64,000 nt of DNA from Escherichia coli (GTDB taxonomy: Bacteria; Pseudomonadota; Gammaproteobacteria; Enterobacterales; Enterobacteriaceae), in NCBI RefSeq assembly GCF_003019035.1, contig NZ_CP027447.1; one strand, written 5' to 3'. Below, in pieces: positions 53,783-59,530 of this stretch. Position 1 is the first letter of the stretch, and each line of letters opens with the position of its first letter. The translations under genes were made by a program, and so were the position numbers. The notes below the pieces were generated by a model that was not told where the DNA came from, ran no database searches, and saw only the letters and a list, made by a program, of their open reading frames with translations.

Positions 53783-54193
53783 TCACAAAATGGCGGTCGT
53801 TAATCGTGACGAACAGCACAAACGCCCTTTCTCATCGAAGATTTCAATCTGCCAGACCTGGTGACGCGAACCGAGATGCAACGGTTTGCATACGCCGCGC
53901 ACCCGCCCTTCTCGTGCCGAGCGGACGTGGTTAGCATTGATTTCCAGACCAACCACCTTTTGCTCACCTTCGGTACATAAATAGCCGGCAACGGAACCGA
54001 TACTTTCGGCCAGCACCACAGACGCGCCTCCATGCAGCAACCCGAAAGGCTGCTTTGTCCGGGAGTCTACTGGCATTGTCGCTTCAAGGGTGTCATCACC
54101 AATATGTTCAAAGCGAATATCCAGCAACCCCACCATGTTTCCTTCACCCATAGCATTCAATGCTTCCAGGGTGATTTTTCGTTTCCATATCAT
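53783..54193 (-). CDS. menI: 1,4-dihydroxy-2-naphthoyl-CoA thioesterase (hotdog fold)
   Basis: 136 aa PaaI-like. Confidence 0.92.
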   Translation of the reverse strand: MIWKRKITLEALNAMGEGNMVGLLDIRFEHIGDDTLEATMPVDSRTKQPFGLLHGGASVVLAESIGSVAGYLCTEGEQKVVGLEINANHVRSAREGRVRGVCKPLHLGSRHQVWQIEIFDEKGRLCCSSRLTTAIL

Positions 54194-57100
54194 TTAATAA
54201 TCTCCAGTAAAGCCTGCACAGGATGGCGTACCCCCGTGCCTTCGACCCGTTTTACCTGGCTACGGCAGGAATATCCGGTCGCCAGACAGCGATTACGCGG
54301 CAGTCGCTGCATCGCCTGATGCCAGGATAACTCATAGATCCCGAGCGAATTTTTATGGTTTTTCGCTTCATGTCCGTAAGTCCCTGCCATGCCGCAGCAA
54401 CCCACGCTGACATTTTCCAGTTTCGCGCCAAAACGGGCAAATATCGCGGCCCATTGTGCTGGCGCGCCCGGCAAAGCGGTAACTTCGGTACAGTGACCAA
54501 AGAAATACCATGATTCACCGCTGACTGTAGCCACTGGCTGTGAGTCAAGTGCGCTTGCCAGCCATTCATTCGCCAGTAAGACGTTAAACTCGCCACGTTC
54601 CTCGCCCAGCGCCAGTTTATATTCATCGCGATAACAAAGTACCAGCGCCGGATCGACGCCCACCATTGGCATCCCCAGCTTCGCCATACGGTTGAGGAAA
54701 TCCGCCGTCTTTTTCGCCGTCTTCGCAAAACGATTAAGAAAGCCTTTGATATGCTGGGCTTTGCCATTTGGCGAAAATGGCAGTAACACAGGCTGGAAAC
54801 CTAATTTTTCAACCAGACGGACAAAATCCGCCACCACTTGCGCATCGTAATAGCTGGTAAAGGGGTCCTGCACCACCAACACCGTGCGCGCTTTCTGCTC
54901 TGCATTGAGAGCTTCAAGCTGTTCCAGCGTCATATTCGCCGAGCGATGCCCCACCATTTGTTGTTGTAGCGAGGGGACTGACAGCAGTGGCAAATCAACC
55001 ATGCCGATATGTTTTTCCGAGAGTTTGCGCACCAGCGGCTGGTTAATGAAGAAGTTAAAGGTTTTCGGCGCGCGTGCCATCAGCGGTGCGTAGCTCTCGA
55101 CCGTAGCAACGAGGTGGTCGCGAAGCGGGCGTAAATAACGGGTGTGATAGAGCTGCAGAAAACGAGAGCGAAACTCCGGCACATCAATTTTGATGGGGCA
55201 CTGGGTCGAACACGCTTTACAGGCCAGACAGCCCGACATAGCCTCTTTGACTTCGTGTGAGAAGTCGTATTCGCCTTTATTCGCATGCCAGCTATTGCGC
55301 GTGCGGGCAATTAACGTCCGTAAACTGACGCCGGATTCAGGCAGTTCTTGTTCCAGTTTGAGTGGGTCAACGCCGCGATCCGCCAACAAGCGCAGCCATT
55401 CACGCACCAGCGTTGCGCGCCCTTTCGGTGAATGAATCCGGTTCTGGGTGATCTTCATCGACGGACACATCGGACTACGGGCATCAAAGTTGAAGCATAA
55501 ACCGTTGCCGTTACACTCCATCGCACCGCGCCACTGCTGGCGTACCGCAATGGGGATCTGCCGATCAAATGTACCGCGCTTCACCGCGTCCACTTTCATC
55601 ATCGGCGCATCGAGACCTTCTGGCGGGCAAATCTTCCCTGGGTTGAGTCGGTTATGCGGGTCAAATGCCGCTTTCACTTTGCGCAGTTCTGCAAAAAGTT
55701 CCTCACCGAAAAACGCCGGGCTGTATTCAGCGCGAAAACCTTTGCCGTGCTCGCCCCACAACAAACCACCGTATTTCGCAGTCAGCGCCACCACGTCATC
55801 AGAGATTTGCTTCATCAAAATCTCTTGTTGTGGATCGCACATATCCAGTGCCGGACGGACGTGCAAGACACCTGCGTCGACGTGACCGAACATACCGTAG
55901 CTTAAGCCGTGGCTGTCGAGCAGCGCGCGAAATTCAGCAATATAATCGGCCAGATGTTCCGGCGGTACGCAGGTATCCTCAGCAAACGGAATTGGCTTAG
56001 CGGCACCTTTGGCATTGCCAAGCAGACCAACGGCTTTTTTGCGCATCGCATAGATACGTTCAACGCCCGCCAGTTCGCGGCACACCTGCCAGCCAATCAC
56101 ACCTGCCTGTTGGCTGGCAATCAGCTCATCAAGCCGCACACAGAGTGCATTAACTCGCTCGTCAATCAGCGCCTCATCATCACCAGCAAATTCCACAATG
56201 TTCAGCCCGAGCATTTCTTTGTCAGGTACATCGGTAATCAACTCGCTGACGGAATGCCAGACAATATCTTCCCGCGCCAGATTCAGCACTTTTGAGTCCA
56301 CCGTCTCTACCGAAAGCGCCCGCGCCTCAACCATAAACGGCGCATTACGCAGCGCAGAGTCAAAAGAGTCATATTTGACATTCACCAAACGGCGCACTTT
56401 AGGCAAGGGCGTAATATCCAGCCGCGCTTCGGTAATAAAGGCCAGCGTCCCTTCTGAACCCGTCAGAATGCGCGTCAGGTCGAACTCGGTCATCTCATCG
56501 TTAAAGACATGACGCAGATCGTAACCGGTAAGAAAGCGGTTAAGCTTGGGGAAGTTGTCGATGATTAACTGGCGTTGCTGACGGCAACGTTGATAAACCG
56601 TGTTATAAATTCGCCCGATTGTGGTATTGGATTTACCCAGCGTTTCCGCCAGTTCGACGGGTAAAGGTTGCGTATCGAGAATATCGCCCCCCAACAACAC
56701 CGCGCGTACGCCAAGTACGTGATCTGACGTTTTGCCATAGACCAGCGATCCCTGACCGGATGCATCGGTATTGATCATCCCGCCGAGCGTTGCCCGGTTG
56801 CTGGTGGAAAGTTCTGGCGCAAAAAAGTAGCCAAAGGGTTTCAGGTACTGATTGAGTTGGTCTTTAATCACCCCGGCCTCAACGCGCACCCAGCCCTCTT
56901 CAGGGTTAATTTCGATGATGCGGTTCATATGGCGGGACATATCAACAATAATCCCCTGGTTGAGCGCCTGACCGTTAGTGCCGGTACCGCCGCCGCGGGG
57001 GGTAAAGATCAACGATGAATAGCGTTCCTGCGCGGCAAGACGGGCGATCATCGCTACATCTGCGGTTGAACGCGGAAATACCACCGCATCGGGGAGAAGT

Positions 57101-57246
57101 TGGTAAATACTGTTGTCGGTCGACATTGTCAGACGATCGGCATAACTTGTCGCCGTATCGCCAGTAAAACCCTGTTGCTCCAGCTCTTGCAAAAAATTAA
57201 GCACCAATTGAACGACGCCAGGTGCCTGGGAAATCTGTGGAATCAT
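54190..57246 (-). CDS. ydiJ: FAD-linked oxidoreductase with C-terminal Fe-S domain YdiJ
   Basis: 1018 aa. Confidence 0.93.
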   Translation of the reverse strand: MIPQISQAPGVVQLVLNFLQELEQQGFTGDTATSYADRLTMSTDNSIYQLLPDAVVFPRSTADVAMIARLAAQERYSSLIFTPRGGGTGTNGQALNQGIIVDMSRHMNRIIEINPEEGWVRVEAGVIKDQLNQYLKPFGYFFAPELSTSNRATLGGMINTDASGQGSLVYGKTSDHVLGVRAVLLGGDILDTQPLPVELAETLGKSNTTIGRIYNTVYQRCRQQRQLIIDNFPKLNRFLTGYDLRHVFNDEMTEFDLTRILTGSEGTLAFITEARLDITPLPKVRRLVNVKYDSFDSALRNAPFMVEARALSVETVDSKVLNLAREDIVWHSVSELITDVPDKEMLGLNIVEFAGDDEALIDERVNALCVRLDELIASQQAGVIGWQVCRELAGVERIYAMRKKAVGLLGNAKGAAKPIPFAEDTCVPPEHLADYIAEFRALLDSHGLSYGMFGHVDAGVLHVRPALDMCDPQQEILMKQISDDVVALTAKYGGLLWGEHGKGFRAEYSPAFFGEELFAELRKVKAAFDPHNRLNPGKICPPEGLDAPMMKVDAVKRGTFDRQIPIAVRQQWRGAMECNGNGLCFNFDARSPMCPSMKITQNRIHSPKGRATLVREWLRLLADRGVDPLKLEQELPESGVSLRTLIARTRNSWHANKGEYDFSHEVKEAMSGCLACKACSTQCPIKIDVPEFRSRFLQLYHTRYLRPLRDHLVATVESYAPLMARAPKTFNFFINQPLVRKLSEKHIGMVDLPLLSVPSLQQQMVGHRSANMTLEQLEALNAEQKARTVLVVQDPFTSYYDAQVVADFVRLVEKLGFQPVLLPFSPNGKAQHIKGFLNRFAKTAKKTADFLNRMAKLGMPMVGVDPALVLCYRDEYKLALGEERGEFNVLLANEWLASALDSQPVATVSGESWYFFGHCTEVTALPGAPAQWAAIFARFGAKLENVSVGCCGMAGTYGHEAKNHKNSLGIYELSWHQAMQRLPRNRCLATGYSCRSQVKRVEGTGVRHPVQALLEIIK

Positions 57247-57321
57247 TATATTGACCCTTTCCTGCGGTCTGTGATGTAGGTCGATACACTGTTCTTTCAG
57301 GCTGCTAATAGCGCACTGAAA

Positions 57322-57462
57322 GGTGATGTTTGTTTACTCTATGGATTTCGAGTTGCAGGAAGGCGGCAAGCGAGTGAACTCCAGGAGCTTACAAAAGTAA
57401 GTGACTGGGGTGAACGAACGTAGCCGCAGCACATGCAATTTGAAATACGACGAGTAAATCGT
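57322..57462. repeat. ERIC (IRU) enterobacterial repetitive intergenic consensus element
   Basis: Contains aagtaagtgactggggtgaacg (ERIC2 primer-like) and gtgaactccaggagcttaca (ERIC1R complement-like) in the ydiJ/ydiK divergent intergenic region. Confidence 0.7.
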
Positions 57463-57632
57463 TTGCGTGTTGCCTGAGTTGTTGTACCACATTTTTTTCT
57501 AACACGCCCATCAGAATTAAGGGCAGAATCGGCCTGTTAAAAACCGCTGAAATTGCTCATCATTATGCAGGTGAGTTTCGCGTGTTCACGTCGCGTCGAC
57601 GATTTGACGCACAAAAAAGGTGAAAAGTAGTT

Positions 57633-58745
57633 ATGGTAAATGTTCGTCAGCCCAGGGATGTCGCACAAATTCTGCTTTCGGTGCTGTTTTTAGCCATCAT
57701 GATTGTGGCATGTCTGTGGATTGTACAACCCTTTATTCTCGGCTTTGCATGGGCTGGTACGGTGGTTATCGCCACCTGGCCGGTATTGTTACGTTTGCAA
57801 AAGATCATGTTTGGTCGCCGCTCTCTCGCCGTTCTGGTGATGACGCTGTTATTAGTGATGGTGTTTATCATCCCTATTGCCTTGCTGGTTAACAGTATCG
57901 TCGACGGCAGCGGTCCGCTAATTAAAGCCATTTCCAGCGGTGACATGACGTTACCCGATCTGGCGTGGCTTAATACCATTCCGGTGATTGGCGCGAAGCT
58001 GTATGCAGGCTGGCACAACTTGCTGGATATGGGGGGTACGGCGATCATGGCGAAAGTCCGTCCTTATATTGGCACCACCACCACCTGGTTCGTTGGGCAG
58101 GCGGCGCATATCGGGCGCTTTATGGTGCATTGTGCGCTGATGCTTCTCTTCAGTGCCCTGCTGTACTGGCGCGGTGAACAGGTGGCACAAGGCATTCGCC
58201 ATTTTGCAACCCGTCTGGCAGGCGTTCGCGGAGATGCCGCCGTACTGCTGGCGGCACAGGCTATCCGCGCGGTGGCGCTGGGTGTGGTGGTGACGGCGTT
58301 AGTACAGGCTGTGCTTGGCGGTATCGGCCTCGCCGTATCCGGCGTGCCTTATGCAACTTTGCTCACGGTGTTAATGATCCTCTCCTGCCTTGTCCAGCTT
58401 GGACCGTTGCCGGTACTGATTCCGGCGATTATCTGGCTCTACTGGACTGGCGATACCACCTGGGGAACGGTATTGTTAGTTTGGAGCGGTGTGGTTGGCA
58501 CGCTGGATAACGTCATCCGCCCAATGTTAATTCGCATGGGTGCCGATTTACCGCTGATCCTGATTCTCTCTGGCGTTATTGGTGGTTTGATTGCTTTCGG
58601 GATGATCGGCCTGTTTATTGGTCCGGTTCTGTTAGCCGTTTCCTGGCGTCTTTTTGCCGCGTGGGTGGAAGAAGTCCCACCGCCGACGGACCAACCGGAA
58701 GAAATTCTCGAAGAACTTGGCGAAATCGAGAAATCGAATAAGTAA
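57633..58745 (+). CDS. ydiK: AI-2E-family membrane protein YdiK
   Basis: 370 aa multi-TM. Confidence 0.92.
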   Translation: MVNVRQPRDVAQILLSVLFLAIMIVACLWIVQPFILGFAWAGTVVIATWPVLLRLQKIMFGRRSLAVLVMTLLLVMVFIIPIALLVNSIVDGSGPLIKAISSGDMTLPDLAWLNTIPVIGAKLYAGWHNLLDMGGTAIMAKVRPYIGTTTTWFVGQAAHIGRFMVHCALMLLFSALLYWRGEQVAQGIRHFATRLAGVRGDAAVLLAAQAIRAVALGVVVTALVQAVLGGIGLAVSGVPYATLLTVLMILSCLVQLGPLPVLIPAIIWLYWTGDTTWGTVLLVWSGVVGTLDNVIRPMLIRMGADLPLILILSGVIGGLIAFGMIGLFIGPVLLAVSWRLFAAWVEEVPPPTDQPEEILEELGEIEKSNK

Positions 58746-58930: not shown

Positions 58931-59036
58931 ACGGTTATAAATCAACATATTGATTTATAAGCATGGAAATCCCCTGAGTGAAACAACGAATTGCTGTGTG
59001 TAGTCTTTGCCCATCTCCCACGATGGGCTTTTTTTT
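58931..59036 (+). ncRNA. rprA: small regulatory RNA RprA
   Basis: acggttataaatcaacatattgatttataagcatggaaatcccctgagtg...cccatctcccacgatgggcttttttt matches recalled RprA including its terminator. Confidence 0.88.
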
Positions 59037-59173
59037 AACATTTTTCCGCTTCGCTACCTCGCCCCTCACGCTTTCCAATAATGTTGCACAAGATACTGTG
59101 ACTCTCTTCAAGCCGTCAGCAGGCTGATAATGTTATTTATATTTTATTGTTTATTTCATGCAGCCATTACACG

Positions 59174-59530
59174 ATGAACGCTTATGAACTCCAGGCACTT
59201 CGCCATATTTTTGCCATGACTATTGATGAATGCGCGACCTGGATTGCCCAGACCGGTAACAGTGAAAGCTGGCGTCAGTGGGAAAATGGCAAATGCGCCA
59301 TTCCTGATTGTGTAGTCGAGCAACTGTTGGCTATGCGTCAGCAACGAAAAAAACATCTTCATGCCATCATAGAGAAAATAAATAACCGCATCGGCAACAA
59401 CACCATGCGTTTTTTCCCCGACTTAACCGAGTTTCAACAAGTCTACCCTGATGGCAATTTTATTGACTGGAAGATCTATCAATCGGTAGCCGCTGAATTA
59501 TATGCACACGATCTGGAGCGGCTTTGTTAA
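59174..59530 (+). CDS. ydiL: YdiL (DUF1870)
   Basis: 118 aa from MNAYELQALRHIF. Confidence 0.88.
   Translation: MNAYELQALRHIFAMTIDECATWIAQTGNSESWRQWENGKCAIPDCVVEQLLAMRQQRKKHLHAIIEKINNRIGNNTMRFFPDLTEFQQVYPDGNFIDWKIYQSVAAELYAHDLERLC

Follow-up and report, generated by a model that had tools for sequence, protein, structure and literature searches.

A polymorphic ERIC insertion in the divergent ydiJ–ydiK spacer of Escherichia coli

The ydiJ–ydiK spacer and its repeat

The DNA under study (the window, 64 kb from Escherichia coli) contains the divergently oriented genes ydiJ and ydiK, separated by a spacer of 386 bp. Gene annotation was taken from the identical stretch of E. coli AR_0013, in which the ydiJ–ydiK spacer is 100% identical, and it agreed with the gene names and divergent arrangement given in an earlier reading made from the sequence without database searches (the sequence-only reading). 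Inside the spacer, at 57332–57458, lies an imperfect palindrome of 127 bp, intergenic and placed between the start codons of the two genes. The features of the locus are as follows.

54190–57246, minus strand: ydiJ, D-2-hydroxyglutarate dehydrogenase
57247–57273, minus strand: ancestral ydiJ-proximal block with the ydiJ ribosome-binding region, identical in all Escherichia examined
57274–57331, no strand assigned: single-copy non-ERIC piece of about 58 bp, missing from the empty site along with the ERIC
57332–57458 (left end 57332/3), plus strand: full-length ERIC/IRU element of 127 bp, recognised by profile, paralogue alignment, copy number and RNA fold
57395–57416, plus strand: ERIC core corresponding to the ERIC2 PCR primer site, 21/22 bases matching
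57458–57467, plus strand: conserved landmark ATCGTTTGCG, directly adjoining the ERIC
57459–57632, plus strand: ancestral spacer half, of near-constant length across Enterobacteriaceae
57633–58745, plus strand: ydiK, AI-2E family transporter

The ydiJ ribosome-binding sequence GGAAAGGG is found on the minus strand at 57255–57262, and the ydiJ-proximal block is conserved in Citrobacter and Salmonella as well. The ydiK control region, and judging from the geometry that of ydiJ too, presumably lies in the ancestral half. Scans of both alleles of the spacer for sigma-70 promoters and terminators returned nothing relevant and no consensus promoter. A literature search, TSS supplements included, found no paper on the ydiJ–ydiK spacer and no TSS or regulator data for it.

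Two further observations concern ydiK. A conserved hairpin, GCGTC-N8-GACGC at 57593–57610, stands about 10 nt upstream of the ydiK Shine-Dalgarno sequence, and its stem covaries (GCGCC/GGCGT in Salmonella, GCGCC/GGCG in Pseudescherichia vulneris, GCCAGC/GCTGGC in Enterobacter); this is a possible leader structure of ydiK. Downstream of ydiK, at about 58931–59038, lies the gene of the small RNA RprA, which had an Rfam match, cut off at the 59000 limit of the search, and is annotated in both AR_0013 and K-12.

The ERIC family has been known since 1990–91 and is the basis of ERIC-PCR typing. The sequence-only reading had recognised an ERIC/IRU element in this spacer, and four independent tests, namely a profile search, the ERIC2 primer site, RNA folding and copy number, agreed with it. 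Throughout, the plus strand is the orientation of both the ERIC2 primer and the ERIC profile.

The profile HMM was built from 9 other ERIC copies, with the window copy excluded; these comprised the copies at pgk–fbaA, ybhJ–ybhI and ybtP–ybtA together with copies of five other species. It matched the window at 57331–57458 over model positions 2–130 of 133, with a score of 101 bits (E 1.7e-32). Alignment of the window element with the ERICs of pgk–fbaA, ybhJ–ybhI and others extended over the whole length and was good from end to end. The interval proposed by the sequence-only reading, 57322–57462, encloses the element and exceeds it by about 10 bases at the left end and by 4 at the right. The ybtP–ybtA copy belongs to a plasmid-borne yersiniabactin cluster (L004 1501–1568, pH222-1).

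The published ERIC2 primer, AAGTAAGTGACTGGGGTGAGCG (PMC3696847), had a single match in the 64 kb, at 57395–57416 on the plus strand with 1 mismatch, and 0 of 100 shuffled sequences were matched. The window contains one ERIC, the ydiJ–ydiK copy. When folded as RNA, its plus strand formed one long hairpin of -58.3 kcal/mol (z -7.0), while the minus strand reached -35.9 kcal/mol (z -3.9). A consensus structure derived from 10 ERIC copies comprised 34 pairs, with compensatory changes in 8 of them.

Used as a query at a cut-off of E ≤ 1e-3, the 127-mer was located at 59,211 places in 5,425 E. coli genomes, with a median of 12 and a maximum of 19 per genome. The paralogues showed 87–89% identity to the window copy over positions 4–125. 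Literature values for K-12 are 19–30 ERIC copies (PMC2267715, PMC10969869). The number of places found with this query varied by lineage, being 15 in K-12-type genomes, 15–17 in O103/O111, just 3–5 in ST131-type genomes, and 5 in AR_0013, the strain identical to the window.

The properties of the window element correspond to those of the ERIC/IRU/RU-1 repeats (Sharples & Lloyd 1990, Hulton et al. 1991 and Wilson & Sharp 2006, via PMC2229807 and PMC10969869), which share with it a length of 126–127 bp, the sequence over its whole length, an imperfect palindrome forming one long stem-loop, an intergenic and dispersed multi-copy distribution, and presence/absence variation between strains. Correia/NEMIS and RUP elements are likewise small non-autonomous inverted-repeat MITEs with long-hairpin transcripts and insertion near genes (PMC2229807), but are unrelated to ERIC in sequence and host range. 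Promoters or IHF sites may be present in Correia elements (PMC2229807); none was detected in the window ERIC.

The stable fold also bears on the idea of an independent small RNA gene that coincides with the element or encloses it, as represented in Rfam by the ERIC-like families V_AS5 (RF02818, Vibrio) and Ysr49 (RF02766, Yersinia). Both models align over the whole ERIC, with matches covering 57332–57454/57497, and evidently describe ERIC-like transcribed sequences; Rfam itself holds no ERIC family. The scores, 38.3 bits for V_AS5 and 32.3 bits for Ysr49, lie far below the gathering thresholds of 96 and 95, respectively, and the window ERIC belongs to neither family. V_AS5 and Ysr49 themselves resemble ERIC, which accounts for the similarity, and no promoter-like or terminator-like site was seen beside the element. 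A small RNA gene at this place is very improbable.

A protein-coding role would have to fall to a minus-strand ORF of 52 codons at 57334–57492, which overlaps the ERIC. The reading frame stays open in K-12, E. albertii and E. whittamii alike, and ORFs have been described in ERICs (PMC2229807). Such intactness is, however, expected at this level of DNA identity, 2–3 amino-acid replacements occur in each of the three, and the ORF is missing from the short allele of the spacer. Neither a credible Pfam or NCBIfam family match nor, on reading the sequence upstream of the ATG, a Shine-Dalgarno sequence was seen. That it encodes a small protein is hardly to be believed, and we rate it lowest among the alternatives.

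With high confidence, then, the segment 57332–57458 belongs to the non-autonomous miniature inverted-repeat elements of the ERIC (IRU) family and is an ordinary representative of them. The element class is already known, and the polymorphism, composite structure, hinge use and conservation described below leave this classification unchanged.

Occupied and empty alleles of the spacer

Of 5426 complete E. coli genomes, 4255 had a long spacer with the ERIC. In K-12 MG1655 this element is 124/127 identical to the window copy and lies in a spacer of 388 bp, which answers the comparison with K-12 that had been proposed along with the sequence-only reading. A short spacer of 213 bp was found in about 1169 complete genomes (~22%), including strain 536 and ST131 isolates, which we take to belong to phylogroup B2. 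Outside E. coli, the long form occurs in E. albertii, E. whittamii, Escherichia sp. E1V33 and a further lineage, L012, and the short form in Escherichia sp. MOD1-EC7003 and in nearly all other genera. Because both forms are found in other Escherichia, the polymorphism is either older than E. coli or has spread between species by recombination.

The direction of the change was read from 80 orthologous loci of other species (L009–L088). A spacer of about 200–213 bp is usual in Citrobacter, Enterobacter, Klebsiella, Kluyvera and others among these loci. The short E. coli junction, GTGATGAGAGATTAATCG, is homologous to GTGTTGTGAATTTAATCG of Citrobacter and GAGAGTTAATCG of C. amalonaticus, and the short allele has bases, AGAGATT, that are missing from the long allele. 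On the strength of this homology and of these additional bases, the short form is the ancestral empty site and not a deletion. The ERIC has therefore been inserted into a spacer that is otherwise conserved and measures about 213 bp, and the insertion is polymorphic within E. coli. Occupied and unoccupied orthologous sites both exist, as is characteristic of a mobile element.

The long and short alleles differ by 173 bp and not by the 127 bp of the ERIC, since the piece of about 58 bp at 57274–57331 is also missing from the empty site. This piece occurs once per genome, and its carriers are as numerous as those of the long allele (4255 each); accordingly, no allele with the ERIC only or with the piece only was seen. 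It contains a hairpin in which CTTTCAG (57294–57300) pairs with CTGAAAG (57316–57322), its minus strand folds with a z of -3.1, and a direct repeat, GTGATG, occurs at 57271–57276 and 57323–57328. One candidate origin, a degenerate, internally deleted mini-ERIC such as Enterobacter sp. JUb54 (L047) seems to have, was unsupported. The piece had no match to the ERIC profile even at E 1000, and its best local score against the ERIC arms was 11, compared with 10.6 ± 1.4 for shuffled sequences and 10.8 for random 58-mers of the window.

In several respects the window copy departs from a typical ERIC: its ends are TT and AA, its core carries a 1-bp deletion, it is accompanied by the unrelated piece of 58 bp, and it sits between divergent genes and not downstream of a gene. 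Its termini, TTTACTC (57333–57339) and GAGTAAA (57452–57458), form a terminal inverted repeat. The paralogues end in TATACTC and GAGTATA instead, so that the outer TA has become TT on the left and AA on the right. The two changes are complementary and keep the terminal hairpin pair, and they are common to all Escherichia long alleles. ERICs are recognised by 5'-TA-3' at both ends together with a target-site duplication (PMC2229807 Table 1; PMC3184786). No clean target duplication could be read here, because the additional 58 bp stand between the ancestral left flank and the ERIC. An independent ERIC in Enterobacter genomosp. O (L053) has TA...TA ends and lies at a TA of the empty site.

The 1-bp deletion in the core (GAAC-TCCAGG) falls within GAATCCCCAGG. 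A 44-nt ERIC core consensus gave 0 ungapped matches in the window at up to 3 mismatches, and the ERIC1R primer likewise; these failures are attributable to the deletion and not to absence of the element. As a consequence, ERIC1R would be expected to prime the window copy poorly in ERIC-PCR.

The window allele itself is rare, with only about 12–24 of the 4255 long-allele genomes being at least 99% identical to it. It shows a 2-bp deletion (GC) around 57304–57306 in the loop of the left hairpin (CTGCT--AATAG), where K-12 and other Escherichia have CTGCTGCAATAG, and a T at 57439 where others have C.

Recurrent insertions in one hinge

Across 80 species of Enterobacterales, nearly all of the length variation of the ydiJ–ydiK spacer was located in one hinge, equivalent to 57247–57467, between the ydiJ ribosome-binding block and the ATCGTTTGCG/TCGTTTGCG landmark. 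The distance from the ydiJ ATG to TCGTTTGCG ranged from 30 to 236 nt and fell into at least 10 length classes, and that from the conserved ATCACATTTTTTT block to the ydiK start was constant at 130–150 nt.

Full-length ERICs were found 0–3 bp from the landmark in four cases: Escherichia, Enterobacter sp. JUb54 (L047), Enterobacter genomosp. O (L053) and L057. The L053 copy lies in the opposite orientation, and the close relatives L052 and L054 are empty; a relative of L057, L062, is also empty. These are independent ERIC insertions at the same point in at least three enterobacterial lineages besides Escherichia. The L057 record is titled Chryseobacterium sp. 18061, but its ydiJ–ydiK locus is enterobacterial, with flanks nearly identical to those of Citrobacter sp. 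18056 (L062); a mislabelled title or a contaminated assembly is the probable reason.

Other inserts occupy the same region. Raoultella planticola (L032) and L047 have in common a reverse-oriented element with weak similarity to ERIC arms, C. amalonaticus S646 (L024) has an interrupted ERIC immediately to the right of the landmark, and unrelated hinge inserts were observed in Kluyvera, some Citrobacter (NCU1/R56) and Salmonella arizonae/diarizonae.

This recurrence reflects either a target preference or the circumstance that, within a compact divergent control region, the hinge alone tolerates insertions. That the inserts include various unrelated sequences speaks for insertion tolerance. A further proposal is that the hinge beside ATCGTTTGCG is a true preferred target of the ERIC mobilisation machinery and that, in Escherichia, the ERIC with its 58 bp was also exapted as a selected ydiJ leader or regulatory module. 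The first part draws on the at least four independent ERIC insertions within 0–3 bp of ATCGTTTGCG, in both orientations. As a whole, the proposal is improbable in our judgement.

Conservation of the insert and its possible working

Sequence divergence was compared between E. coli and four other Escherichia lineages (L009, L010, L012 and L013). The insert differed at 1.1–5.4% of sites, while third codon positions of ydiJ and ydiK beyond 240 nt differed at 12.9–36.6% (Fisher p 2e-5 to 4e-19). Divergence of the insert was 5–25 times below that of third codon positions and 3–7 times below that of the ydiK–rprA spacer, which differs by up to 22%. Its level of conservation was close to that of the ancestral spacer half. 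This slow divergence suggests that the ERIC copy is not free neutral DNA.

The cause may be purifying selection, transfer of the entire spacer from species to species by homologous exchange, or a combination of the two, and the divergence profiles separate these only partly. The ratio of insert to third-position divergence was 0.14–0.21 in three of the comparisons, values that fit purifying selection. For L012, it was 0.04, too low, pointing to recent exchange with E. coli; the L012 spacer had 3 differences in 359 sites, compared with about 12 expected at the ratio of the other species (an estimate), which suggests recent inter-species recombination with E. coli. The L012 record is labelled E. 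coli SCPM-O-B-8794, yet it is 75% identical at third codon positions. Raised identity reached about 120–240 nt into both ydiJ and ydiK, and a weaker bump of identity was present also in genera without any ERIC.

The 173-bp insert could be an exapted, selected cis-regulatory part for ydiJ and/or ydiK in most Escherichia, providing a lineage-specific control that empty-site strains lack. Its conservation at the level of the ancestral regulatory half, the three ratios of 0.14–0.21, the low divergence relative to the ydiK–rprA spacer and the paired change of the termini from TA..TA to TT..AA all accord with such a role. Substitutions in the stem in E. albertii, however, are not compensatory, the bump of conservation runs into both coding regions, and L012 looks recombinant. 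The insert is moreover dispensable, as empty-site strains are successful lineages, and the predicted masking of the Shine-Dalgarno sequence, described below, is not robust. Exaptation is a possible reading, and in our view a rather unlikely one.

The geometry of the empty site allows a plainer account of how the insert might act. Only about 41 nt lie between the insertion point and the ydiJ start codon, so the ancestral ydiJ promoter would be expected on the ydiK side of the insertion point, or straddling it. In the long allele, the 173-bp insert would then be transcribed within a lengthened ydiJ 5' leader, where the minus-strand ERIC RNA would form a long imperfect hairpin. Such a hairpin could modestly alter the stability or processing of the leader, as ERIC RNA does in Yersinia transcripts. 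The element itself would encode nothing of note and would not be able to move alone. Taken together, the promoter beyond the insertion point, the insert in the ydiJ leader and the effect of the hairpin have, judged from geometry only, roughly an even chance of being correct.

The precedent comes from Yersinia, where ERIC RNA modulates mRNA stability (De Gregorio et al. 2005, via PMC2229807, PMC3184786 and PMC10969869). The only experimentally supported function of ERIC is the orientation-dependent destabilisation, in Yersinia, of the mRNA of an upstream translated gene, involving an RNase E site (PMC2229807, PMC3184786, PMC10969869). The window ERIC belongs to the same repeat family, has the same RNA hairpin and would, if transcribed, likewise be part of an mRNA. 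The Yersinia mechanism nevertheless needs an ERIC close behind a translated gene; since the window ERIC is upstream of both divergent neighbours, it is not directly applicable here. The occurrence of independent insertions in both orientations also speaks against a common orientation-dependent function.

A more specific effect was tried and rejected, namely masking of the ydiJ Shine-Dalgarno sequence by the minus-strand ERIC RNA (CCUUCCUGC). It appeared in the MFE structure of the window allele and was not robust, as it depended on the assumed 5' end and was absent in K-12, E. albertii and E. whittamii. In the short allele, the ydiJ Shine-Dalgarno sequence was predicted to be equally paired.

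Beyond what the sequence-only reading had noted, the comparison brought out the insertion polymorphism, the non-ERIC companion of about 58 bp and the 1-bp deletion in the core. The repeated insertion of ERICs at one point of this spacer bears on target choice and mobilisation in the family. Being far more conserved than neutral sites, the Escherichia copy is a candidate for constraint on a MITE or for inter-species exchange. Were the insert indeed exapted, strains with the empty site (536 and ST131 among them) would control D-2-hydroxyglutarate dehydrogenase differently from other E. coli. At this locus, occupied and empty alleles form a clean natural pair in one species, which suits testing the effect of an ERIC on the expression of its neighbours.
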